Assembly (NCBI GenBank): GCA_965200965.1
Contig: OZ241744.1
Location: 64,001 to 128,000, forward strand
Origin: an uncultured Candidatus Binatia bacterium
GTDB taxonomy: Bacteria; Desulfobacterota; Binatia; Bin18
Direction: 5' to 3'
Length of the DNA stretch: 64,000 bases
Positions 51,715 to 64,000 of the stretch are shown here, one piece after another; within the stretch, counting starts at the first letter, position 1; the number at the start of each line of letters is the position of its first letter. Made by a program: the position numbers and the translations under genes. The notes beneath the pieces were generated by a model that saw only the letters and a list, made by a program, of their open reading frames with translations, was not told the DNA's origin and searched no databases.

Positions 51715-52725
51715 TCAGCCGCAGGCGGTTTCGAGCAGTGCGGCGCACACCTGATAGGGGTCCATGTTGGCCGCGGGACGCCGGTCTTCCAGATACCCGC
51801 GGCCTTCATTGGCGGTGGCCATTGGAATCCGCACCGAGGCCCCACGGTCGCTGATGCCGTAGCGGAACTCATGGATGCTACAGGTTTCGTGCAGGCCGGT
51901 GAGGCGTTCTTCGTTATGCGCCCCATAGACCGTAATATGCTCCGCGTGCCTTTGTTCCAGCGCTTTGCAGGCCGCGGTGACCACCTCGAGGCCGCCGGCC
52001 GCGCGCATGGATTTGGTGCTGAAATTGGTATGCGCGCCGGCACCGTTCCAGTCGCCTTTGACCGGCTTGGGGTGGAGCGTAGCGTTGACGCCGGAATCTT
52101 CGGCAATGCGGTAGAGCAGCCAGCGGGCGATCCATAACTGGTCGGCTATCTCAGGCGCTCCTATGGGGCCGATCTGAAACTCCCACTGCCCGGGCATGAC
52201 CTCGGCATTGATGCCGGAGATGGCCAGCCCGGCTTCCAGACAGGCGTTCATGTGGCTCTCAACAATCTCGCGGCCAAAGACCTCATCGGCCCCGACCCCG
52301 CAGTAAAACGGCCCCTGGGGTGCGGGATAGCCACCCTCCGGCCAGCCGAGGGGTGAGCGCCCGCGGAAAAATGTATACTCCTGCTCAATACCGAACCAGG
52401 GGTCGTGGTCTTGATACTTGTCCTGAATCTCAACGAGGGGCGCGCGGGTGTTGGACTCATGCACCGAGCCGTCCGGCAGCCGGACCTCGTTCATCACCAG
52501 GATGTTCAGACCCCCACGGATGGGGTCAGGAACATAGTACACGGGCTTGAGCAGGCGGTCGCTGTTGTGCCCCTCGGCCTGCATGGTGCTGGAGCCGTCA
52601 AATCCCCACTGCGGAATATCTTCGAGACTGTTGACGGGTTTCTCAAGGATTTTTGTTTTTGAGCGGAGGGTGGCCGTTGGTTTGTTGCCGTCCATCCAGA
52701 TGTATTCGGCCTTGAGTTTCGTCAT
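51715..52725 (-). CDS. glnII: Glutamine synthetase type II
   Basis: MTKLKAEYIWMDG, WGFDGSST, NAEVMPGQWEFQIG, GDWNGAGAH, GYLEDRRPAAN; 336 aa; AAGGG RBS. Confidence 0.9.
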   Translation of the reverse strand: MTKLKAEYIWMDGNKPTATLRSKTKILEKPVNSLEDIPQWGFDGSSTMQAEGHNSDRLLKPVYYVPDPIRGGLNILVMNEVRLPDGSVHESNTRAPLVEIQDKYQDHDPWFGIEQEYTFFRGRSPLGWPEGGYPAPQGPFYCGVGADEVFGREIVESHMNACLEAGLAISGINAEVMPGQWEFQIGPIGAPEIADQLWIARWLLYRIAEDSGVNATLHPKPVKGDWNGAGAHTNFSTKSMRAAGGLEVVTAACKALEQRHAEHITVYGAHNEERLTGLHETCSIHEFRYGISDRGASVRIPMATANEGRGYLEDRRPAANMDPYQVCAALLETACG

Positions 52726-52959
52726 GGCGATTCCCCTTTCCTGAAGATGATTTCGCCGGGGCAGGCGGGGAGGGGGCAGTGCCCGGCTGCTCTGTCCCGA
52801 CACCACAGAATTGTAGCCAAGCCGGGGAGAAAGTTCAACGAGGGGGAACGCCCCGGGGCAATCAGGAGGGAGACCGCCCCGGGGCAAATGGCAGGAGCAC
52901 CGATTTTCTCCTGCCACACTGGTGTTCTGACTCACGGCCGGTGACGGTAATTGTTGTGT

Positions 52960-53125
52960 TCCGGGACGCTTGAAGGGCCAACTGGACAGTTCGCTCAGGG
53001 GCGCGAGCGCGTTCAACTCGCCGGTCGTCAGTTCAAGAACGATGTTGCCGATCTGAATGGAGGTGTTTCCCAGGGTAAACCCACAGGCTGAACGGCTGGC
53101 TGTGTGCCTTCCATACGGTGTCCAT
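52960..53125 (-). pseudogene. Frameshifted paralog of the small proteins at 54668-54859 and 58693-58908
   Basis: AGGAAG RBS + MDTVWKAHSQPFSLWVYP, frameshift near 53071, then GNTSIQIGNIVLELTTGELNALA; 3' end undefined. Confidence 0.45.
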
Positions 53126-53296
53126 AGCGGCTTCCTTTTCAGGTCAAAGGGACAACAGAGAAGAGTGCCCCAGGGGGCGGGGCAGGAACCCCCGGGGCGA
53201 CAGCGGGAAGGAGGGTTTCCCGCTGAAAGGTGTTGTGTGCGGTAGACTGAGAACCAGAAAAGAGCCTGTGAGGACACATTGTTTCACCATCCTTGC

Positions 53297-53324
53297 CGGC
53301 TCTAGGCTCAGGGCCGTTGACCTT
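53297..53324 (-). promoter_or_regulatory. 28-nt leader motif, copy D
   Basis: AAGGTCAACGGCCCTGAGCCTAGAGCCG; its AGAGCC pairs with the downstream GGCTCT-TTT (53258-53266). Confidence 0.65.
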
Positions 53325-53331
53325 TTTCTTA

Positions 53332-53358
53332 AGTTGAAATTGACTATCAATTTCAACT
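53332..53358. promoter_or_regulatory. Fur-like box overlapping a minus-strand promoter
   Basis: Palindrome agttgaaattga-cta-tcaatttcaact; TTGACG-17nt-TATTTT at 53388-53360. Confidence 0.75.
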
Positions 53359-53797
53359 AAAAATATGTCAGCTTTCTCGTCCCGTCAAGGGGGAAACGGG
53401 TCTTTTTGCAAAAAACTTTCCGACCCCGGTAATCCTAAAACGAAAAACACCAGTGCCAATCAGCCCGCCAAGGCCGGTGGCAAGAGTTTTTCTCCGCAGC
53501 CCAGCCCGAGCCGCAGCCCACTGAAGGCCACAAACAGATAACTGCCCAACTCGGCCACCGCGGAGCGCACCAAGCGCAGGGCTTCATTTTTTGCTTCCTC
53601 AAGACCGGGAAGGCCCTGTCAAGCAGGTGCAAGGTCTGGCTGATAACCCTGGCCCGATGGTGACGCTGGCCCCGCAGCAGTATGATGGCTTGGCGGCGCT
53701 CGCCTTTTTCCAGATGGGCCAGGGTCTGGACGATAACACCCTTGGACCGCTGTCGCCACCATTGCCGCAGCTTGACCAGGATGACGGCCAGCCTACC

Positions 53798-53825
53798 GGG
53801 CTCTAGGCTTGGGATCTCTGGCCGC
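53798..53825 (-). promoter_or_regulatory. 28-nt leader motif, copy C
   Basis: GCGGCCAGAGATCCCAAGCCTAGAGCCC, followed by TAGGCTGGCCG which can base-pair with it. Confidence 0.65.
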
Positions 53826-53840
53826 TTGAGTTTTCAGTTA

Positions 53841-53864
53841 GTTGAAATTGATTATCAATTTCAT
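53841..53864. promoter_or_regulatory. Fur-like box
   Basis: gttgaaattgattatcaatttcat; minus-strand TTGACA at 53892-53897. Confidence 0.75.
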
Positions 53865-53932
53865 AAATATCCTGCCCTCTTTTTCCCGGCCTGTCAACCG
53901 TCCCCTTAGAGAAAACGTCTCGGCCGGCCGTT

Positions 53933-54262
53933 TTATGAACGCTCGGCAGTCAGTGACACGCCGCTTTCCAGCACGACCGTATGGATCTCAAGGACATTGC
54001 TGCCGGCAAACATTTCGGCTGGCGGACGCCTGGAGTGTGCCTGGCGAAACGAGGCACTTTTGGTCCAGCGTTCAAAGTCGGCTTGGCTGCGCCAGTAGGT
54101 CTTGACCAGATAGTATTCGCCCTTGATGGGCCGCAGGACCTCGTTGCGGATGAACCCAGGCTCTTGGTCAATCAGACCGGCCCGGTTGCGGAAGCGTTCT
54201 TCAAACTCGGCTTCGTGGCCTTTGGCCACCGGGATGCGATTGGTGACAACAACCATGCTCAT
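53933..54262 (-). CDS. IsdG/HmoA-like heme-degrading monooxygenase (ABM fold)
   Basis: VVTNRI (Asn), FEERF, PGF, FERWTKSASFRQAH (Trp, His); iron-gene context. Confidence 0.8.
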   Translation of the reverse strand: MSMVVVTNRIPVAKGHEAEFEERFRNRAGLIDQEPGFIRNEVLRPIKGEYYLVKTYWRSQADFERWTKSASFRQAHSRRPPAEMFAGSNVLEIHTVVLESGVSLTAERS

Positions 54263-54299
54263 GCGGTGTACCTCCTGTGGGACGTGGTATGTAATGGAT

Positions 54300-54551
54300 A
54301 GAGTATGGGGCCCTGATACCCGGAACGCGGGCCAAGGTAATATCCAGGCTGCCCTGACTGAGAGCGATCATGCGCTCGGCCGGTCTGTCCAGGCTCATAT
54401 GCCGGCCGGCCCCATCCTGGACCGAAACCGGAAAATCCGCGGCCGTGGCCGCTTGCAGAACAAGCCAGCACAGCAGGACGACGCCAAGTCTGCACCAATA
54501 TGGCTGTCTTGCCCTTGTATACACTGGAAGATAACAGGGAAAGCGGGACAT
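54300..54551 (-). pseudogene. 5' remnant of an iron-complex/heme/cobalamin ABC substrate-binding protein
   Basis: Signal peptide then DFPVSVQDGAGRHMSLDRPAERMIALS; similarity stops abruptly. Confidence 0.6.
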
Positions 54552-54667
54552 CTGACACTGGCAGCCCATCCGCCAGCGATGGCAACACCTCTTTGGCGAT
54601 GTCCCGACTTTCCCTTTCTCCCCCGTCCAGACGGGGGAGAGCTGTGAGCGGGCCTCAGTGCCCGAGC

Positions 54668-54859
54668 TCAGACGCCGGATGTGGCTCCGCCAGGGATATC
54701 TCCTGGGTTGGCCGTATCGGTCAGCTTGGCCAAGACCAGAAATTCTTCTCGGGTCATTTTGACGCTCGCCCGTCCGACCACAAGATGAATACAGCCTTCC
54801 GGGCAGTGTGAGATGCCGATCTGCCTGTTGCCCGTGTGCCAAAAACCTGTCCTGTTCAC
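54668..54859 (-). CDS. Small hypothetical protein (CPxG family)
   Basis: AAGGAG RBS + GTG; HCPEGCIHLVVGRASVKMTREEFLVLA. Confidence 0.6.
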   Translation of the reverse strand: MNRTGFWHTGNRQIGISHCPEGCIHLVVGRASVKMTREEFLVLAKLTDTANPGDIPGGATSGV

Positions 54860-54936
54860 CCCGCTCTCCTTTCTGAGCACCAGGGCGCGTTTGCGCCTGT
54901 GGCATCGGCTGGGCCGGGATGGACAACGCCCACATG

Positions 54937-56811
54937 TCACAAAGACTCCAAAAAAATGATGAGCGCTTCCCGGTCTTCTCTGGGCATCACGCGCACAGCC
55001 TCACGCGCCCGGGCCGCTTCTCCGCCGTGCCACATGACCGCTTCCATGAGAGTACGCGCCCGGCCGTCGTGCAGGAACAAGGTATGGCCCTGGACCCGCA
55101 GGGTGAGGCCAATGCCCCATAGTGGTGGCGTCCGCCATTCGCGGCCGCTGGCCAGAAAGTCGGGCCGGCCGTCGGCTAGTCCTTCGCCCATGTCGTGGAG
55201 CAGCATGTCGGTATAGGGGTGAATCGTCTGGTGCGATACCTCCGGCACCCCGACTAAGACCCCTGTCCTCAGCGTTGGGGTATGGCAGGCCGCGCAGCCG
55301 GCCGCGGCAAATACCTCTTCGCCTCTGCGCACCTGCGGGTCATCCACCCTGCGCCGGGCCGGGACGGCCAGGGTTTGGACGTAGAACGTTGCCACGTCAA
55401 GGGTTTCCACGTCAATCTCAGGGTCGTCCGCCAAGCCGTCGTCCTGGAGTTGGCCAGTGGCGCTTTCGATCGGCAAGACCGGGTTGGTAATGCCGATGTC
55501 CTGCTGATAGGCGTTGAAGGTCTGCTGGAAGAGACTGGAATTATTGGCCTTCCAGCCAAAGCGGCCCAGCCGGGTTGCCCCCGAGGCAGTGTCCCAGACC
55601 ATATTCGGTCGGCCGGAAATCCCATCTCCATTGGCGTCAAACTCATCGGCCAGGGCCAGGATGGTCGCGCGGTCAAGGGCTTCCAGCAGGCCGCGCCCAA
55701 ACACCGGCAGGGCGGTGCGCGGTGAAGTCAGGACTTGGGCGGGGAGGGGGACAGCGGGGTTCTCAATAGTAAAATGCAGGGTCCGCAGCCGGATGCTTTC
55801 GCCATCGGCAAAAGTCTCAATGCGTTCGGTCTGGGTCATGCGCACATCCGCCTCTGGCAGGACGCCAAAGACGGCCCGATGTTGCAGCTGCGTCCCCATG
55901 CCCGGGACGGGGAGCGGGCCGCGGGTGACGGCATCCGCGCCTGGCACGCTGACCCGCAGAAAAATGGTGTCCAGCCGCTCGCCCTCTCGTGGCGGGCGAC
56001 CCCGGCCGTTTTTCGGATGACAGCTGGCACAGCCAGTATTATTGAAGATCGGCCCCAGGCCGCTGAAGACCGGAGCGGGGGCCGTCACAAAGGTGTCTCC
56101 AAAGGCGGCGTCGCCATCGAGATGTTTCTCCAGACGCGCCCCGACCAAGTTGGGGGCCGGCATTTCAAACGCCTGGCTGGTCGCGTCAAAAATCGTGGTC
56201 TCCCCACCCGCCAGGGCTGTGCTGCGGGCACCGACCGGAAGGCTGGCCGGCGCGGCCAGGATGACCGGGGATTGGGTGCTCAGGCTGTAGCCCAGGCGCA
56301 GATTAGCGCTGCTCGTGCCATGACGAGAGCGCACCTGTGCCCCAGACACCAGGAGTTCATTCCCCTCAATGACGGCGCTCGCCCGGCTGAGGTCGAGCTG
56401 CTCAATGAACTCCGCCCCGCCCGGCTTGACCACCCTGACCGGATGTTCCACGGTGACTGGTTCATCCCCTGCCGCCCTGACCTCCACCCCGATTGTGTGG
56501 ACGCCGGCATTGAGCAGGCCGTAATTGAACAGCAGTCCAAAGGCTGTTTTCAGCGGCGCGCCGGGAATAGCGTCCATCACGTCCTGGCGCGGACTACAGC
56601 ACGCGACAGGGCTGACAGGCTCGCCATTGATACGCAGCCTGACCGTAATGGGCGCGCCGGTATCGGAGAAAGCCCAGCCGGAAATGACGCTCAGCCCTGA
56701 TACGCTACCACCCTGGCCGGGATTCTCCAGGACAGCGGTGATGGTGGCCGGACTGACCGCCGGCCACAGCAGCAACACCCCTGCGATACACGCGCGATAC
56801 CATATTGACAT
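54937..56811 (-). CDS. Di-heme oxidoreductase family (DHOR/DUF1111) protein with extra N-terminal Ig-like domain
   Basis: GLGPIFNNTGCASCH, GRFGWKA, CAACH, WRTPPLWGIG, LHDGRAR. Confidence 0.88.
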   Translation of the reverse strand: MSIWYRACIAGVLLLWPAVSPATITAVLENPGQGGSVSGLSVISGWAFSDTGAPITVRLRINGEPVSPVACCSPRQDVMDAIPGAPLKTAFGLLFNYGLLNAGVHTIGVEVRAAGDEPVTVEHPVRVVKPGGAEFIEQLDLSRASAVIEGNELLVSGAQVRSRHGTSSANLRLGYSLSTQSPVILAAPASLPVGARSTALAGGETTIFDATSQAFEMPAPNLVGARLEKHLDGDAAFGDTFVTAPAPVFSGLGPIFNNTGCASCHPKNGRGRPPREGERLDTIFLRVSVPGADAVTRGPLPVPGMGTQLQHRAVFGVLPEADVRMTQTERIETFADGESIRLRTLHFTIENPAVPLPAQVLTSPRTALPVFGRGLLEALDRATILALADEFDANGDGISGRPNMVWDTASGATRLGRFGWKANNSSLFQQTFNAYQQDIGITNPVLPIESATGQLQDDGLADDPEIDVETLDVATFYVQTLAVPARRRVDDPQVRRGEEVFAAAGCAACHTPTLRTGVLVGVPEVSHQTIHPYTDMLLHDMGEGLADGRPDFLASGREWRTPPLWGIGLTLRVQGHTLFLHDGRARTLMEAVMWHGGEAARAREAVRVMPREDREALIIFLESL

Positions 56812-56919
56812 AGCTCTCCTCAATTTCGGCCTGAAGCAGTTTAGCTGGGAGGAGACCTGTCTTGTCGGGGATGGGCCGCTCAGGGCAGTCTCTCCCGCAT
56901 CCAGTCACACAGGGGCCGC

Positions 56920-58557
56920 TCAGTAGGCAAAACTCGCTGCCGAGACAAGCGGCAGAATGTCTTGCAGGGCCGCGTGCAAGGTCTGCCCGGCATCCACCGC
57001 GGCTTGGACACGCGCACGGCCGGCATCGTTCATGATGCTCTGGCCAAAGGGCTCAGGGATGGCGATGACGGCCGCTATGGCCTCACGCAGTGCGGCCCGG
57101 ACCCGCACATCCAGCTCGGGGTTTTGATTGGCGACAAAGTCCGTCACACCCATTGAGGTGCCGTCAGTCTGGTCAAAGCGGCCCTCGTAGATGTTGTTGA
57201 TACTGCGCAGATTGTCGATGAAGTCGCGCCTGGAATTATTGCTGAAGCGGGATTCTTCTTCTGCGGTACTGCGGTCGTTGAGCGGGACAGCCAGCTTGGT
57301 GTTGGCCACCTCGTCGGCAATACCGATCATGCCGTTGACCAGTTCCTGGACCGCGGCTTTTTGACTGGTGTAGTTCGTACTGCCTCTGCCAGCCATAGCC
57401 AACTGACGCACAAAGTTCCCGTCTTCAGGGTCCCAAGCGTTGCGGAGCGCACCGGTGTTGCCAACAAATGCGGTCAGCACCTCCTGCGCATAAGCGCTTC
57501 TGCGGGACTGGGTACCATCGGAGTTGAGCAGGGAGGCCACAATCGCGGTGGGGTCTGTCCTGCCGGCCTGATCCTGGAACAGCAGATATTCCAGGGCGTG
57601 GAAGCCTCTGGTGTCATCCTCAAGAGTCAGGCCAGCAATGTCAGTGTTAGAGGCGATGATGTTTTCCAGGTCGGTCGTATTGAGCGGCCAGGAGTCCAGG
57701 GCGGGGTCATGCTCGTCGGTATCGACCGGCCCGAACAGAAACGCCTCGCTCTGCTCCCAGGGAACGCGGGCCTCCCGCCAGGCGGTCTGGACGGTGGCCA
57801 GACGCGCAATCATGCTGGCCCGGTCTCCGGCCATCACGGCGTTGAGGACGGCTGACTGGAGATCCGCTGCCCGTGTATGCAGTGCGTCATAGGTATCAAA
57901 AATAGCCCCGGCCACATCCTCTAGCAGTTGTGAGGCGTCGTAGGGGGACCGCGCCGGCCCACGAGCATCCTGGGCGAGGGCAATGCCGAAGGCCTGGGCG
58001 GCTGTGCTATAGGCCAGGGTCAGTGTGGTGGTGACTGGGGTGGCCTGGTCTGCTTTGGGGGTGGCCTCGGCTCCGGTAATGACGATCGTGCCGTCATCTT
58101 CGTCTATGGTGACGGTAGCATCTTCGATGGACAGTGAGCCGAGAACCTCGGCATCCGCCGGCCGCACCACCGTGATACCGCTGTCCACCATCACCGGCTC
58201 CTCACCAGCAGCCCTGACCTCGACACCTATGGTGTGGACGCCTGAGGGTAAGACGCCGTAGTTCCACAACAGGCCGAAGCCGCTGTTGGGCGGGGCGGCT
58301 GGATAGGCGTTCTGCACATCCTGACGCGGCCCGCAGCACAGAATCTCGGTCTGGGTGGTTACACCATTGAGGCGCAGCCATACGCTGACCGGGGTATCCG
58401 GGGTATCGCTGAAGGCCCAGCCGGAAAGAGCGGTTATGCCGCTGGCCCTTGTCCCGTTGGCCGGGTTTTCCAGGTTGACCCGGATGGTTGCCAACGCGGG
58501 AAGAACGGTGAAGAGGAGGGAGATACAGAGTGTTCCAAAAACGATTGCCTTTTTCAT
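56920..58557 (-). CDS. Imelysin-family (M75-like) iron-regulated protein with extra N-terminal Ig-like domain
   Basis: WEQSEAFLFGP, DSWP, GFHALEYLLF (GxHxxE), DEVANTK, ESRFSNNS. Confidence 0.88.
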   Translation of the reverse strand: MKKAIVFGTLCISLLFTVLPALATIRVNLENPANGTRASGITALSGWAFSDTPDTPVSVWLRLNGVTTQTEILCCGPRQDVQNAYPAAPPNSGFGLLWNYGVLPSGVHTIGVEVRAAGEEPVMVDSGITVVRPADAEVLGSLSIEDATVTIDEDDGTIVITGAEATPKADQATPVTTTLTLAYSTAAQAFGIALAQDARGPARSPYDASQLLEDVAGAIFDTYDALHTRAADLQSAVLNAVMAGDRASMIARLATVQTAWREARVPWEQSEAFLFGPVDTDEHDPALDSWPLNTTDLENIIASNTDIAGLTLEDDTRGFHALEYLLFQDQAGRTDPTAIVASLLNSDGTQSRRSAYAQEVLTAFVGNTGALRNAWDPEDGNFVRQLAMAGRGSTNYTSQKAAVQELVNGMIGIADEVANTKLAVPLNDRSTAEEESRFSNNSRRDFIDNLRSINNIYEGRFDQTDGTSMGVTDFVANQNPELDVRVRAALREAIAAVIAIPEPFGQSIMNDAGRARVQAAVDAGQTLHAALQDILPLVSAASFAY

Positions 58558-58692
58558 ACAGTCTCCTTTTGCGACTTGCGCAGTGTTCTCACGCTTTATT
58601 CCAACTCCGCCGGGCGTGGAGGGGGGGGGTCCCGGGCGCAACGGAATACCCAGGACTCGGGGCGGGAGCGGGCGGGATGGATTGAGGCTGGT

Positions 58693-58908
58693 TCAGTGCT
58701 TTGTCTGGCCATGCTCACAGTTCTGGTGTTCAAGCAGATGTTGCTGGGTCGCCATGATGACCTCCGCAAGGTCGAGAAAATCCGTCCTGCGCAAAGAGAT
58801 ACAGGTGTGACCAACGCAGAGGGCCACGCTCCCGTGTGGACAGACCCGGGTAGAAAGCCCACGCTGGTTCATAAAAAGGACCGTGTTATCGTCCTGGATT
58901 TTTTCCAT
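58693..58908 (-). CDS. Small hypothetical protein (CPxG family), first gene of the imelysin operon
   Basis: AAGGAGG RBS; VCPHGSVALCVGHTCISLRRTDFLDLA; His-rich tail. Confidence 0.65.
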   Translation of the reverse strand: MEKIQDDNTVLFMNQRGLSTRVCPHGSVALCVGHTCISLRRTDFLDLAEVIMATQQHLLEHQNCEHGQTKH

Positions 58909-58937
58909 CTCTCCCTCCTCCTTATTAGGGGAACGGC

Positions 58938-58976
58938 AAAAAAAGAGCCCGCGAGAATTGTCTCTCCACGGGCTCT
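58938..58976 (-). terminator. Intrinsic terminator within the 5' leader (attenuator) of the imelysin operon
   Basis: AGAGCCCG...CGGGCTCT followed by a T run, about 30 nt upstream of the first ATG. Confidence 0.8.
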
Positions 58977-58997
58977 GGGTGCAGGACCGCTGGCCTC
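58970..58997 (-). promoter_or_regulatory. 28-nt leader motif, copy B
   Basis: GAGGCCAGCGGTCCTGCACCCAGAGCCC; its last 7 nt form the 5' arm of the terminator. Confidence 0.75.
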
Positions 58998-59092
58998 AAG
59001 TGCTCCGGCTGTGACAGCTGCGGATTATGGTGTCATGTTTGTGTCCTTTCTGACTCCCGGTGATTCCCTGTCGGTTCACGAGGGCAATGCTG

Positions 59093-59124
59093 ATTGAAAT
59101 TGAAAATGATTGTCAAGTTCATTT
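59093..59124. promoter_or_regulatory. Fur-like box between the divergent imelysin operon and ferritin-like gene
   Basis: attgaaattgaaaatgattgtcaagttcat resembles GATAATGATAATCATTATC-type arrays. Confidence 0.7.
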
Positions 59125-59235
59125 TATTCAATAAAATCAATAACTTAGAGCGAAAATTGACTTGACATTGAGCGCCAGAAGGGTTAGCCTGGGTACAGAT
59201 AGTTTTTCCACACCCTCCACAGAAAGGAGTTGACA

Positions 59236-59697
59236 ATGGACACACCTACAATGATTGACGCGCTGAACCGGGCCGTGGCTCTTGAGCACACCGCGGTCAT
59301 GCAGTACAAACAACACGCCCTGCTGGTCAGCGGCCTGTGGCGCAAGGAATACGAGGGCTTCTTTGGCGACCAGAGTGAGAGCGCCCTTGGCCATGCCCGG
59401 AAGTTCGGCCAGAAGATCGTTTCACTGGGCGGTATCCCGACGGTTGAGTTGGGCGCGCCGATTCGCCAGTCAACCGACCTCGAAGAGATGCTGAACCAGG
59501 ACCTGGAGTTGGAACGGGCCGCCCTGTACGCATACATGGAGGCCCACAGGCTGGCCGATGATAATCTGCCGCTGCGGGTCATGCTGGAGAACCAGGTTGA
59601 GGCTGAGCAGGAAGATATCGAAGGGCTGGAAATGGCTCTTGGCATGGTACAGACTTCCGGGCTTGAACGCGAAATCAATCTGCGCCGGGTCGGCTGA
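59236..59697 (+). CDS. Ferritin-like/bacterioferritin-related protein
   Basis: LNRAVALEHTAVMQY, IVSLGGIP, DLELERAA; AAGGAG RBS; TTGACA-17nt-TAGCCT promoter at 59162-59190. Confidence 0.8.
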   Translation: MDTPTMIDALNRAVALEHTAVMQYKQHALLVSGLWRKEYEGFFGDQSESALGHARKFGQKIVSLGGIPTVELGAPIRQSTDLEEMLNQDLELERAALYAYMEAHRLADDNLPLRVMLENQVEAEQEDIEGLEMALGMVQTSGLEREINLRRVG

Positions 59698-59715
59698 GCG
59701 CCAGACACACAGACC

Positions 59716-60090
59716 TCACGCCGTCTCAGCGGGTGGTTCAGCATTCCGGAAAGCCCGCTTGGACCGACTCCCGGCCCGGTCTTCGCCGAGTTGATGCTGT
59801 TGTCCTCCCCGCTCGTGCTGCCTGGTCGGAAAGGGGATGACCTTCCCGCTGGGCGCTTGGCGGCCTTCGCGCCAGGCACTTCGGTTCCTGCACACGCTAT
59901 GCAGCAGCGCTGTGGCTTCTGCCGGACTGAGCCGCAGGGTGTGTTGACGGTACCAGCCTACGCCCCTGCCCCAGGACAGGCGGCGCAACTCAAGCGCCGG
60001 TTTCCCCCCATCAGTCGGGCTGAGGAGGATTTCGAGCCGACTGTGCTTGTCATCCGCGGTGACTGTGCTCAGCAGTTGCTTGTGTGACAT
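59716..60090 (-). CDS. Hypothetical protein
   Basis: AAGGAG RBS; LELRRLSWGRGVGWYRQHTLRL; last gene of the porin-ApbE operon. Confidence 0.6.
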   Translation of the reverse strand: MSHKQLLSTVTADDKHSRLEILLSPTDGGKPALELRRLSWGRGVGWYRQHTLRLSPAEATALLHSVCRNRSAWREGRQAPSGKVIPFPTRQHERGGQQHQLGEDRAGSRSKRAFRNAEPPAETA

Positions 60091-60109
60091 TCTTCTCTCC
60101 TTGCCAGGC

Positions 60110-61105
60110 TTAAAACGAGACAAACGAGACCGCCCGTCGCCAGCCGGCGGTTTCCCACCGTCGCCCGTTTGTTTCCAGTAACATGCCTTCTACGTCGGAC
60201 AGACGCTCTAACAGCGCTGTCCCCTCTGATTCGCCGAGAATCAAAAATGCCGTGCTCAAGGCTTCGGCTTTGGCGGCGCTGGGGGCGACAATACAGGCCA
60301 GCAGATCGCGCTGAACAGGCCGTCCGTTGCGGGGATCAATGATATGGCCATGGGAGTGGCCTCCAACAGGAAAGCTGTGGCCCAGACTGCCTGAAACCGA
60401 AAGCGCCTGATTGCGCAGGGTGACGGTCCCCGCGCTTGCGCCGTTTGGCAGTCGGATGAGGAGCCGCCAGCCGTCTGCCTTGGGCGGTGCTCCCAAGGCC
60501 CACTGGCTGCTCTGGCCAAAATTGAGCAGGGCGTGCTCGACCCGCTGCGCCCTGAGCAGGGCGGCCATGCGGTCAAGGGCGAACCCCTTGCCAATGCCCC
60601 CGAGGTCCAGCGCCATGTCTGTGTCAGTCAGGGCAGCCGTGCCCTGTGGAGAGAGGACGATCTTGTGGCTGCCAACCCGGCTGAGGGTCTGTTGGACCGT
60701 ACCGGGGGAGGGCGGGCGGTGTGCGCTCTTCCATAAGGCCATGAGCGGACCGACGGTAATATCAAAGGTGCCGCGGGTCAGCTCCCAGTAGCGAATGGAG
60801 GCGGACAGCGCGTCCATGACCTCGGCGGGAACGGGCATTGGACCCTGACCGGCGGTGGCGTTGAGGCGGCTGACCGGGCTGTTGGGCGTATAGGTCGTCA
60901 ACAGCCGCTCCAGACGAGCAGCGGTCTCAAACAGGCTGTCGCTGCTGCGGCGGGTATGGGCGGGGTCGGCTCCGCACAGGGTGAGCTGCAAGACCGTGCC
61001 CATGATGTAGCGGCCGTCAATTACGCACGACAGCGGCAGGGCAGCGCTCGGCAGGCTCAGCAGGAGGACACAGCCGATGATGGGCAGGGACAGGCGTGGC
61101 GTCAT
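60110..61105 (-). CDS. apbE: FAD:protein FMN transferase
   Basis: IMGT, FDITVGPL, DLGGIGKGFA, HIIDPRNG. Confidence 0.9.
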   Translation of the reverse strand: MTPRLSLPIIGCVLLLSLPSAALPLSCVIDGRYIMGTVLQLTLCGADPAHTRRSSDSLFETAARLERLLTTYTPNSPVSRLNATAGQGPMPVPAEVMDALSASIRYWELTRGTFDITVGPLMALWKSAHRPPSPGTVQQTLSRVGSHKIVLSPQGTAALTDTDMALDLGGIGKGFALDRMAALLRAQRVEHALLNFGQSSQWALGAPPKADGWRLLIRLPNGASAGTVTLRNQALSVSGSLGHSFPVGGHSHGHIIDPRNGRPVQRDLLACIVAPSAAKAEALSTAFLILGESEGTALLERLSDVEGMLLETNGRRWETAGWRRAVSFVSF

Positions 61106-61683
61106 CCTCGTACTCGGCTCCTTCCAGACCGACTTCCGCCGTGGGCGGCTGTGTCGGGCGTCGGTCGGTGCCTCGCAGCCTGCCCGCGATCCTTGCCGTA
61201 CTGGGCTTGAGACCCGGCAAAAACGGCCCACAGGGCAACAACGATCAGCGCGGCAAGGCTGACTTCCAAGGCCACAAAGCCGGCAATTTTCAGATAGGCA
61301 AACAGCGGGTGGACAAAGCGCACTAGCCAGCCGCTGCCCTCGTCAAGCAGGGCGGCGGTAAACGGAATGATGATAAACCCGGCTTTGGTATTCGAGCTGA
61401 GCGGCACGAACAGCATGAGATGGGTCAGGGTCAGGAGAAGCAGCCCCATGGCAAACAAGTGAAAATGGGACACTTCCAGCATGCCCTGATAGCTGCGGGG
61501 CTGCAAAAAACGTTCTTCCGACCCCAGATAATACTCCGTCACCGAAACATAGCTCAGGTCCATCTTCTGGAAATACAGCAGGGCGTTGGTCAGCCACAGG
61601 CCGGCCACATAGATGACAAAGAGGACGATGATGAGCTGCAGCAGCCGGTTTTTGGACCACTCGCCGGTAATCACAAAACGCAC
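61102..61683 (-). CDS. Four-TM membrane protein with conserved-looking His residues (possible heme-b electron conduit)
   Basis: LEVSHFHLFAM, TLTHL, WLVRFVHP; lies between the FMN-binding gene and apbE. Confidence 0.65.
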   Translation of the reverse strand: MRFVITGEWSKNRLLQLIIVLFVIYVAGLWLTNALLYFQKMDLSYVSVTEYYLGSEERFLQPRSYQGMLEVSHFHLFAMGLLLLTLTHLMLFVPLSSNTKAGFIIIPFTAALLDEGSGWLVRFVHPLFAYLKIAGFVALEVSLAALIVVALWAVFAGSQAQYGKDRGQAARHRPTPDTAAHGGSRSGRSRVRG

Positions 61684-61684
61684 G

Positions 61685-62209
61685 CTAGTGTTGCTCCTGA
61701 ATCAAGACCTCAAAAAGGGCCAGGACTTTGCGCACGCCTTGGGTCGCGGCCTGGGCTGTCAGCGTGGAGCCCATGATGCCGTGGATATCGCGCCGCAGGC
61801 GTAACGAAGGCGTCAAGTGTTTCTGATCAAACTGCTCCAGCCACCGCTCTGAGGGCAGGTATTCGGCCGGCTCATAAAAGGCCAGGACCAGGAGTTTTTG
61901 CAGGGTACCGTCGGGTGACACCACTATCAGAAAGGTTTCCGGAAAGGTCCGCACAATATGGGTCTCAATAAAGGCGTAGCCCTGCACAACATCGGACGTA
62001 TGGCCGATGTGAAAGGTGGCCAGCTTGGAGTTGACCGCGGTCTGCGCCAGGGCCTCAACCCGCTCAATCTGCTGCGGGGTGAGAAAGAAGGTTTGCGTCT
62101 CAATGCGGTCGGCCGTGGGAAATGCCACCTGGAGTGCCTCTGCCCTGGAATAAAAAACCTGGGCCTCAATGCAGGTGGCACCACCCAGCAGCAGCACCAT
62201 GCACAGCAT
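61685..62209 (-). CDS. Periplasmic FMN-binding domain protein
   Basis: Signal peptide; AFYEPAEYLP..WLEQF; DIHGIMGSTLTA resembles the (S/T)GA(S/T) flavinylation motif. Confidence 0.75.
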   Translation of the reverse strand: MLCMVLLLGGATCIEAQVFYSRAEALQVAFPTADRIETQTFFLTPQQIERVEALAQTAVNSKLATFHIGHTSDVVQGYAFIETHIVRTFPETFLIVVSPDGTLQKLLVLAFYEPAEYLPSERWLEQFDQKHLTPSLRLRRDIHGIMGSTLTAQAATQGVRKVLALFEVLIQEQH

Positions 62210-62216
62210 GGACTGC

Positions 62217-63662
62217 CTAGAAAACAAAGCCCACGCCAAAGTTCACCTCGTCTTCGCGCTCGTGGCTGTTCTCCACCGTATCGAAGTTCCGATAGTCCAC
62301 CTTGAGCACGACATTGGGATGGGGTTTATAGCTGATGCCGGTGGTCCAGATGCGGTGCTCGTAGCGACCCTTGGCATCCCAGTCACCGGCCATCTCGGCG
62401 TGCTGGTCAATATAGGAGAAGCGCAAAAAGGGCGACAATTGCTGTTGGGTGTCGCCCAGGACCCACGGCATGATGTCGTAGGCCGCCTCTGTATAGAAGC
62501 CGTACATCTCCTTGGCGATCTTGCCGCCCCCCCCGATCCGGTTGAGTGTGTCCGAGTCCTCCAGATGGGACATGGCGAACAGCGCCCGCAGGTCCAGCCC
62601 TTGCCAACTGTACATGGCATGCAGGTCCCAGATGGTCAGGCGCGCGCCAGGCAGATTGACCTTGCCACAGCTCCCGTCTACGCACTCGAAGTACTGACTA
62701 TCGTGGCTTGACTTGCCAGTGTAGACCGAGCCGCCAACCTTGAGGTTCAGCATGGGTGTATAGTCCAGCCGCGCGGCAAGGGCGATGTCCTCGGCCATGG
62801 CTTCGCCGCCCTTCTGACGTGTGCTGCGCAAATGCTCCTTCAGGTTGAGCGAGGGGCTGGTCACGCAGTTGCCGTTCTCGTCTGGCATACACGAAGACGT
62901 GTTGCTCGTTGCGCCTTCAAGCGCATTCATGGCGTAGAGGCGATATTCCAGACCGGGCAGCAGTTCGCCGAACACCCCGATACCGTTCTCACGCCAAGTT
63001 GAGGGGATGATGCGCCGCTCGACCTCGGGTCGCTCCACCCCGTTGAAGAACACGGGTTCGTGCAACTCGTTGACGATACCCAGCGGGGCGAGCAACATGC
63101 CGGCGCGGAAGTTGGCCCACTTCCACATCAGGAAATCAATGTAGGCAAACTCGACCGAGACCGAGCCGCCGGTGCTGGTTGAGGCGTGCTCAAACTCCAA
63201 CTCGGCGTTCAGAATGATACGGTCGGTAAACTTATAGCCCGTGTAGAGCACAAAGCGCAGATAGTCGGTCGTGTCACGGTCGCTGCGCGTCTTATCACTC
63301 ACATCCTTGCGGTAAAAGGCCTCACCATAGCCGCCGATCGACAAGCCCCGCTCGACACCATAAATCTTGGAGGCCGCCGGTCCCAGGCCGTACACGCTGT
63401 CTTCCAGGGTCAGCGGCTCGAAGTCGGGCACGGTCAGGCTGGTGCGGAGGCTTTCAAACTCCTCGGCCAGCAGGCTGGTACGCCGGGCCGCTTCTTCTTG
63501 CTCTTTTTTCCGCTCTTCTTTGAGAGCGGTCAGTTCTTCCTGCATCTGTCGCATCTGCTGTTCAAGCTGTTGGATGCGGCCGTCATCGACCGCCTCGGCC
63601 AAACGGGAAGTCCCTGTTATGCACATGAGCGTCGCCAGGGCGACTGCCAACTTTCGTACCAT
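62217..63662 (-). CDS. Outer-membrane beta-barrel porin with N-terminal coiled coil
   Basis: Signal peptide, coiled coil, IGGYGE, ELEFEH, HEPVFFNGVERP, IIPSTWRE, C-terminal GVGFVF. Confidence 0.8.
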   Translation of the reverse strand: MVRKLAVALATLMCITGTSRLAEAVDDGRIQQLEQQMRQMQEELTALKEERKKEQEEAARRTSLLAEEFESLRTSLTVPDFEPLTLEDSVYGLGPAASKIYGVERGLSIGGYGEAFYRKDVSDKTRSDRDTTDYLRFVLYTGYKFTDRIILNAELEFEHASTSTGGSVSVEFAYIDFLMWKWANFRAGMLLAPLGIVNELHEPVFFNGVERPEVERRIIPSTWRENGIGVFGELLPGLEYRLYAMNALEGATSNTSSCMPDENGNCVTSPSLNLKEHLRSTRQKGGEAMAEDIALAARLDYTPMLNLKVGGSVYTGKSSHDSQYFECVDGSCGKVNLPGARLTIWDLHAMYSWQGLDLRALFAMSHLEDSDTLNRIGGGGKIAKEMYGFYTEAAYDIMPWVLGDTQQQLSPFLRFSYIDQHAEMAGDWDAKGRYEHRIWTTGISYKPHPNVVLKVDYRNFDTVENSHEREDEVNFGVGFVF

Positions 63663-63699
63663 GCTCAAAACTCCTTCGGGTATGAGGTTCATCACAACA

Positions 63700-63727
63700 G
63701 GGCTCTGGGTTTGGTACCGCTGGCCTC
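63700..63727 (-). promoter_or_regulatory. 28-nt leader motif, copy A
   Basis: GAGGCCAGCGGTACCAAACCCAGAGCCC, between the com-like stop and the porin RBS. Confidence 0.75.
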
Positions 63728-63758
63728 TCGCACATCGATTCCATCATTCGCAGTCGGC

Positions 63759-63965
63759 TCAGTTTCCTCCTTTCTGGTCTGCTTGCCACTCAAGGGCCAC
63801 GTCATGCCACAGAGAGGCCGCGGTCCACGGAATGAGCACGATCCGTTTACAGCGTCGACATTTGAGTTCTACGCCGTTTGGACGCAGTCGCGCCAACAGA
63901 TTCCCGCAGCCGCAGCGGCTCTCTTGGGCATGGGTTGACAGGGAAGATGTCGCTTGGATTCCCAT
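63759..63965 (-). CDS. Mu Com-like zinc-ribbon protein
   Basis: ESRCGCGNLLAR...GVELKCRRCKR matches the Com-family pattern RCxxCxxLLA...EIKCxRC. Confidence 0.75.
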   Translation of the reverse strand: MGIQATSSLSTHAQESRCGCGNLLARLRPNGVELKCRRCKRIVLIPWTAASLWHDVALEWQADQKGGN

Positions 63966-63971
63966 AGACGA

Positions 63972-63992
63972 AATTGAAAATCATTTTCAATT
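63972..63992. promoter_or_regulatory. Fur-like box upstream of the com-like gene
   Basis: Perfect 10-1-10 palindrome aattgaaaat-c-attttcaatt. Confidence 0.8.
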
Positions 63993-64000
63993 ATATTTGT

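Follow-up and report, generated by a model that had tools for sequence, protein, structure and literature searches.

What is a relative of a phage RNA-binding protein doing among the iron operons of a bacterium? The question is raised by the right-hand end of a 64,000-nucleotide (nt) stretch of contig OZ241744.1, from an uncultured Candidatus Binatia bacterium, which we refer to as the window. On its minus strand, a gene for a small four-Cys protein resembling Com of phage Mu (com, below) stands behind a Fur-like box, and four intergenic copies of a 28-nt motif (A to D) follow. An initial annotation had proposed that Fur controls this gene, that its product acts on the motif as an RNA leader element, and that iron-uptake operons are switched on as a result. 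The coordinates, the minus strand and the letters it gave for the four 28-mers were all verified, and the core of its chain, from Fur box through Com-like gene to RNA leader element, is supported by strand-specific occurrence, by covariation in the RNA, by the way the motif tracks com, and by Mu-type sites in Nitrospirota. Judging from sequence, it is probable that a Fur-controlled cellular homologue of Com binds a hairpin formed by the motif, and thereby either antiterminates transcription or frees translation.

The four copies are the only strong matches to the motif in the 3.62-Mb genome. In the genome scan that the initial annotation had suggested, a weight matrix built from the four copies scored them at 33.5-38.4 bits and the next-best site at 19.1; when each was held out in turn, A, B and C ranked within the top 4 and D within the top 5 of ~7.2 million positions. 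A wider structural scan of the genome recovered A, B and D plus one extra site without a terminator, and copy C failed it through inner-stem mismatches. In relatives, the consensus is GNC-CMGM-GNN-loop-NNC-YMGM-GNC, which describes a 3-base-pair (bp) stem, a 4x4 internal loop (CMGM / YMGM, with near two-fold symmetry), a second 3-bp stem and a variable terminal loop. A G[AC]G / CC corner stands at each helix end: one at the base, two on either side of the internal loop and one at the terminal loop. The four GAGNCC-type units first noticed in the letters are best recast as the four helix ends of a two-stem hairpin.

For an unconstrained test of covariation, we fixed the loop bases and the outer letters and left three pairs free; some of the loci used (L031-L060) had been fetched by the motif. 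This frame is found within 400 nt downstream of com in the sense direction at 79 of 124 com genes, antisense at none and upstream at 2, and the random orientation that would have spoken against the proposal is not what is seen. The three free pairs are kept in 61, 64 and 61 of 65 distinct sites, as G-C, A-U, U-A, C-G or G-U. Among the same 65 sites, 15 non-Watson-Crick cells are G-U and 3 are A-C, which argues that the functional strand is the coding-strand RNA. A formal count over 48 rows gave 98.6% pairing and 21 double changes, with 0 of 500 shuffles as high and collapse on sliding, a figure that is partly circular as most rows were pairing-filtered, only 5-nt loops were included and row L118 was mis-registered. 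Nitrospira-type genomes hold versions of the motif with differing stems side by side, indicating that the stems are free to vary and the loop bases are held. Genus g8 carries a one-base variant of the motif (0/10 with the initial pattern). At L256, ~60 nt past com, a ~40-nt hairpin is inserted in the terminal loop of a site, and the terminal loop thus appears dispensable. Rfam covariance models gave only 4 chance-level matches over 52500-64000, and 0 matches at gathering score in 9 related loci.

The hairpin pattern tracks com in Binatia, Nitrospirota and Myxococcota, the co-occurrence that the original proposal had put forward as a check. Among 201 Binatia genomes, 78 carry the gene, 65 the pattern and 57 both, so that com-positive genomes have the pattern in 57 of 78 cases and com-negative ones in 8 of 123; the reversed pattern, used as a control, matches in 19/201. 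The corresponding counts among 201 Nitrospirota genomes are 64, 52 and 45, or 45/64 com-positive versus 7/137 com-negative (control, 29/201). Twenty of 201 Myxococcota genomes carry the gene, and the motif lies directly behind it in 17 of these, never antisense; genome-wide pattern counts in this GC-rich group are at background (65/201, control similar), and only adjacency to com was therefore used there. Eight of the 15 com-negative matches were inspected: six lie in long reading frames, one has no leader context, and the last is a true site on a contig that begins inside the operon. Matches in G362 and G312 were dropped, their letters being read as antisense to a coding frame. Loci that carry the labels Rokubacteria and Bdellovibrionota have motif sites as well.

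The relation of the protein to Com itself rests on several comparisons. Its core, RCxCGxLLA...ExKCRRCKR, is invariant, and a profile comparison with Mu Com (hhalign), run without a control against other zinc ribbons, gave P=90 and E=1.7e-6 with 37% identity over 30 columns. The protein matches PHROG 6417, 'translational regulator', at E=0.002, and the Atlas lists for it, at 0.91, a Com cluster with which it has 143 features in common. Sequence searches of Pfam, NCBIfam and the PDB returned no named match for the window protein, and by sequence no solved relative was found in the PDB. The predicted structure has a three-strand core, with predicted local distance difference test scores of 77-87 over residues 21-50; the best fold-search result with this model was Z 3.3, to unrelated beta-propeller chains. 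The family numbers 1284 representatives and is cellular, viral contigs yielding 2 weak matches to the protein and 0 to the motif. Eleven of the best 150 family matches have two fingers in one chain (P0121-P0124, P0131, P0134, P0137, P0142, P0143, P0153 and P0230), fusions that fit a paired binding site.

[quoted passage not shown] The literal CC(N)2-3GAG is present in all four window copies and in 17 of the 65 distinct sites, and the terminal loop has the form C...G[AC] in 41 of the 65. The closest correspondence comes from Nitrospirota genomes that have the gene and lack the two-stem pattern, examined at 22 loci (20 stretches plus L095 and L163), 21 of them with a recognisable gene. Canonical GAG-NN-CC...G[AC]G-NN-CC sites with a 2-6-nt loop lie within 500 nt of com at 18 of the 21, two or more of them at 15 of the 21, and seven loci have a literal SELEX match. 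The middles of these sites are complementary in 32 of 34, and none is antisense or upstream. Both site types occur in one locus at L249 and at L110/L163. With two-stem and Mu-type sites behind the same family, one protein family appears to be paired with two layouts of the Com corner, and on present evidence we regard the canonical Mu-type sites as the strongest indication that the hairpin and Com belong together.

These findings also bear on whether the RNA could act by itself. A conserved internal loop, a single orientation and a layout like that of an aptamer over a terminator (see below) might indicate a small riboswitch with a metal or metabolite as its direct ligand, com being only a passenger in the same Fur operons. 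We think this very unlikely, given an element of only ~26 nt with two 3-bp stems, its chance-level occurrence in genomes without com, and conserved bases that are Com-type corners, rearranged to canonical Mu Com sites in one lineage; nor does it match Rfam.

If a Com-like protein does hold the hairpin, what would this achieve? We sampled metagenomes starting from the motif, taking 80 of at least 124 stretches, with 69 distinct sites that had enough flank. Among the matches listed, the complement of the motif 3' end lies 10-50 nt downstream at 67 of the 69 (7 in a control window at +200 nt), and at 62 of the 69 an intrinsic terminator with a U-rich tail has the motif 3' end as its first arm (control, 0). 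A stricter terminator test was passed by 41 of 107 sites near com genes. Translation had been proposed as the output; given the terminator overlap, the commonest output appears instead to be transcription antitermination. Folded by itself, the hairpin reaches about -6 kcal/mol in A and B; with so weak a structure, the default state would be OFF and a ligand would be needed. Hairpin and terminator are mutually exclusive, and stabilising the hairpin can therefore only weaken the terminator; with the hairpin enforced, the remaining stem is left ~5-7 nt from the U tract. Copies B and D are of this terminator type. Copy A, together with many other first-gene sites, has no U tract and stands before a ribosome site; pairing of the porin ribosome site behind A is predicted at 0.79 when free and 0.52 with the hairpin enforced. 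Folding thus suggests a modest effect of the translational switch.

In the metagenome sample, again among the matches listed, com lies within 500 nt upstream at 21 of 60 sites and a Binatia-type Fur box within 600 nt at 2 of 60. Many of these sites are operon-internal and Nitrospira-type, ~3.3 kb behind com and beyond the 1.5-kb flank. A copy of the motif is found upstream of com itself at L109:9926 (with a terminator), L112:9791 and L123:1275, where positive autoregulation of com is possible.

The mutual exclusion of hairpin and terminator argues against a second alternative, in which the Com-like protein binds the element as a repressor, or is a transcription factor that recognises it in DNA form, as an operator: stabilisation could only weaken the terminator. 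The tolerance of G-U, the avoidance of A-C and the strict strand bias speak against it as well. On its side are the automatic Atlas name of some relatives, 'Com family DNA-binding transcriptional regulator', and targets such as ferritin-like and HD-domain genes, which are not obvious iron-starvation genes; we consider it quite improbable. Another island protein might be the binder, acting by itself or together with Com, which would then require it; the candidates are the Cys protein (58693-58908) and the 59716-60090 protein, both often encoded by the first gene behind the motif in Binatia and relatives. This is highly improbable: among genomes with com and motif, searches did not find the former family in 5 of 5 Myxococcota and in 2 of 5 Nitrospirota (one search without a positive control), nor the latter in 4 of 4. 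Least probable of all is a conserved module that works without a ligand and, as a pause or a fold, fixes how far the terminator leaks, which would suit a competing stem that is always overlapped, and which leaves unexplained both the invariant unpaired loop bases beside freely covarying stems and the loss of the element where com is missing. Each of these alternatives explains less than binding by Com.

Binding of the hairpin by the Com-like protein would form a second layer of control beneath Fur, the presumed iron repressor. Fur boxes have a 7-1-7 form, and such boxes precede com, B, C and D, as had been claimed; exact or one-mismatch matches to our own 7-1-7 pattern, on which this count rests, occur genome-wide at those four places and at one unrelated one-mismatch site. 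Two Fur-family genes are encoded in the genome, and the combination of a 7-1-7 box over the promoter with a fur gene in the genome is what a Fur regulon would be expected to present. In a first step suggested by the boxes, Fur would repress com and the target promoters, and iron shortage would release com. Second, folding predicts that in the absence of protein the downstream stem beats the hairpin, giving a stop (B, D) or a hidden ribosome site (A). Third, two or more fingers would bind the corners as the RNA emerges and hold the hairpin, so that 5-7 bp would be stripped from the base of the terminator by the U tract, resulting in read-through. Fur control, binding and a switch towards ON would together make a feed-forward AND gate of the coherent type; at loci with a site ahead of com, positive feedback would be added.

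Several observations weigh against this picture. Keeping the hairpin against terminator B would cost ~13-14 kcal/mol at equilibrium, and kinetic capture must therefore be assumed. Ribosome-site pairing over 58 leaders drops by more than 0.2 in 20 and rises in 4, with a mean that moves from 0.65 to 0.51. The window protein misses the PF10122 (Zn_ribbon_Com) cut-off, only 4 of 61 family members match that model, weakly (best E 0.0026), and the first knuckle is CxC in the family and CxxC in Mu, all four Cys being conserved. None of the four window copies matches the bipartite SELEX consensus literally, and their stems are one pair shorter. Among com-positive Binatia genomes, 21 of 78 have no pattern match; inspection of 18 of these 21 showed variant sites, with long loops or an altered loop base, in 7, and no clear site in the vicinity of com in 11. 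The genomes are kin, and the co-occurrence counts therefore overstate independence. Finally, a weaker Fur-like 7-1-7 box stands before feoA, and the motif is absent from that leader.

Table 1. Features of the island on the minus strand of the window (position 1 is the first letter of the 64,000-nt stretch).
Feature	Position	Strand	Basis or remark
Fur-like 7-1-7 box over com promoter	63974..63990	-	-35 hexamer just beyond window edge
Com-like four-Cys zinc-finger gene, 68 amino acids, CxC...CxxC	63759..63965	-	Profile comparison with Mu Com, PHROG, Atlas
Copy A, two-stem hairpin, translational type	63700..63727	-	3' end can pair across porin ribosome site 63676-63671
Operon behind A: predicted porin, putative flavin mononucleotide (FMN)-binding protein, protein with four transmembrane segments (4-TM), ApbE	60110..63662	-	Profile matches and inference
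Fur-like box before B	59100..59116	-	Pattern match
Copy B, two-stem hairpin, antiterminator type	58970..58997	-	Folding
Intrinsic terminator with the last 7 nt of copy B as 5' arm; U tract follows	58938..58976	-	-24.8 kcal/mol, z -2.8
Operon behind B: small Cys protein, imelysin, di-haem DHOR, second small Cys protein	54668..58908	-	
Fur-like box before C	53842..53858	-	Pattern match
Copy C, degenerate relic, terminator and ribosome site deleted	53798..53825	-	Folding, comparison with relatives
Truncated, frameshifted exbB/motA fragment fused to C	53535..53791	-	64-66% identity to intact ExbB in L065, L033
Sigma-70-type promoter (53388-53360) and Fur-like box (53350-53334) before D	53334..53388	-	
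Copy D, two-stem hairpin, compensatory C-G inner pair, antiterminator type	53297..53324	-	Folding
Weakened terminator overlapping 3' end of D	53256..53303	-	Folding
Region behind D: C-rich anti-ribosome-site loop hairpins (53201-53225, 52850-52886), frameshifted small gene from 53125	52850..53225	-	

Within the window (Table 1), the first base of copy A lies 31 nt past the com stop codon, in agreement with the position first reported. The com ATG (63965-63974 region) is ~7 nt past the Fur box and has no ribosome site, as at most Binatia loci, and the com mRNA is possibly leaderless. At L128 and L159, the apparent end of a fur-family gene was seen by eye upstream of com, in place of a Fur box. 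An AAGGAGG word resembling a ribosome site occurs at or just past the end of com (window 63763-63775; L166-L192), with no consistent start codon. Just beyond the right end of the window, tRNA-Ser and tRNA-Arg genes are divergent to com (L001:1823-2060). Recent prophage insertion at com was considered on account of these tRNA genes; it is not needed, since the same neighbours recur in another genus. The Fur-like box of B adjoins a divergent ferritin-like gene (59230-59697, plus strand), and at 59026-59050 (minus strand) a ribosome site is followed by a three-codon frame, Met-Thr-Pro-stop, ~28 nt before copy B. With its sigma-70-type promoter upstream of the Fur box, copy D lies inside the predicted transcript.

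The claim that these leaders gate operons holds for A and B, which stand before intact operons, and fails for C, a relic, and for D, which precedes a frameshifted small gene. The 3' end of C has been joined by deletion to an internal exbB fragment, where relatives keep the terminator, the ribosome site and a whole exbB. A competing hairpin, reported at every copy, is confirmed for A, B and D; that of C is partly a by-product of the deletion. The small gene after D is frameshifted relative to an intact orthologue in L063. Both the C fusion and the D frameshift also appear, with no indels, in short-read contigs from 2 studies, one run of which may be the window's own source.

Behind copy A, the ApbE flavin transferase match is firm (E=2.7e-64); the porin and FMN-binding calls are weak matches and inference, and three of the four genes of the porin/FMN-binding/4-TM/ApbE module have no Pfam name. 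In Myxococcota and Nitrospira-type loci, too, com is followed by this porin. A link between flavinylation clusters and iron assimilation has been described (excerpts of PMC8238504). The targets are not solely uptake genes, as had been supposed; elsewhere they also include HD-domain, cupredoxin, flavodoxin and ferritin-like genes. In Nitrospira-type loci (L177, L271 and many of L270-L349), a terminator-type site stands before an HD-domain (HD_5) gene, and through such targets the turnover of cyclic dinucleotides may be coupled to this regulon.

Strong hairpins whose C-rich loops are complementary to ribosome sites, as in the region behind D, were also seen at L063:19762, L089:18505 and 11636, and L078:12285; similar ones recur behind motif-gated leaders in many Binatia loci, in two genera. 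The region behind D is a candidate for an iron-sparing type of small RNA, gated by Fur and Com, which we treat as a lead only because such hairpins number 21 genome-wide. Two small-protein families are also characteristic of the island. One has three paralogues in the window (58693-58908, 54668-54859, and 53125 onward, the third frameshifted), with Cys, Gly, His and hydrophobic strands followed by a helix, and is often encoded by the first gene behind the motif; it has no Pfam match, and its best Atlas score is 0.85. The other (59716-60090, minus strand) has a conserved LRRLSWG...GW core and is common beside com in Binatia; by eye it seems to resemble PC4-like single-strand binders.

How does this system compare with those already known? 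The ribonucleic antiterminators (RAT) of BglG, SacY and LicT are weak hairpins of ~30 nt with internal loops, which overlap the 5' arm of a terminator and are held by a dimeric protein. The overlap of a hairpin with a terminator 5' arm is shared here, where protein binding would play the same part. The two differ in protein (CAT-PRD versus zinc ribbon), in an unrelated RNA, and in signal (sugar, by phosphorylation, versus Fur); a CAT/PRD Pfam match was found in none of the 14 window proteins scanned. To Mu Com/mom (PF10122), as set out in excerpts of PMC6483171, the likeness is that of a small four-Cys finger with a matching core and a target just behind its gene, of GAG/CC corners at the C-G closing pairs of 3-4-bp stems, and of a bound hairpin that competes with an inhibitory stem (predicted here). 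Mu Com sits before a DNA-modification gene in a phage, whereas the Com-like gene here sits before a porin operon. The system described here is cellular, Fur-boxed and nearly absent from viral contigs, with several targets per genome; it acts mostly on terminators and not on a translation stem, and has two stacked stems whose corners face across an internal loop, with a CxC first knuckle. HemP/HmuP/ChuP is a small Fur-controlled protein that heads an iron/haem-uptake operon and exerts its effect once transcription has been initiated, by way of a leader element and on a distant gene as well (excerpts of bioRxiv 2022.02.10.479982). Its feed-forward logic is that proposed here; the protein family, the direct-repeat element (HPRE), the host group (Proteobacteria) and the haem-receptor targets are different, to judge from the same excerpts. 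The small proteins of the window gave no HemP-family match in Pfam or NCBIfam. The NiCo/czcD Fe(II) riboswitch likewise controls metal homeostasis genes at the RNA level, and differs in being a large metal-binding RNA without a protein partner that acts against metal excess; antitermination is not mentioned in the available parts of the metallostasis review that covers it (PMC11672702). By analogy, the present system seems closest to Com-mom in recognition, to LicT-RAT in output and to HmuP/ChuP in circuit logic, as a formal member of none. We found no description of it in Rfam or in the literature searched, a search outside which lie the supplements of large RNA-motif surveys.

One may go further, to a new zinc-finger antiterminator family in which a cellular relative of Com reads a modular G[AC]G / CC corner code in two architectures, runs a post-initiation iron regulon in at least 5 phyla including nitrifying Nitrospira, senses metal or redox through CxC...CxxC, and gates a Fur-controlled small RNA with anti-ribosome-site loops, phage com-mom being a possible offshoot and not the source. 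As a whole, this extended scheme is speculative and we regard it as rather doubtful. The system is built from very small parts, a finger core of ~35 residues and an RNA of 26 nt, which have natural variants in the form of swapped stems and two site layouts and could be tested in E. coli. The structure of Com with RNA is given as still unsolved, with crystals of the RNA only, in excerpts of PMC6483171; the system offers a route to such a structure and a compact protein-RNA switch for synthetic circuits. Com has hitherto figured as a translational activator of a phage, acting on one target. If our reading is true, a relative of Com would be a regulon-wide bacterial antiterminator, representing a new RNA motif family and a new class of antiterminator protein, and would give Binatia, myxobacteria and nitrifying Nitrospirota a second tier of iron control.

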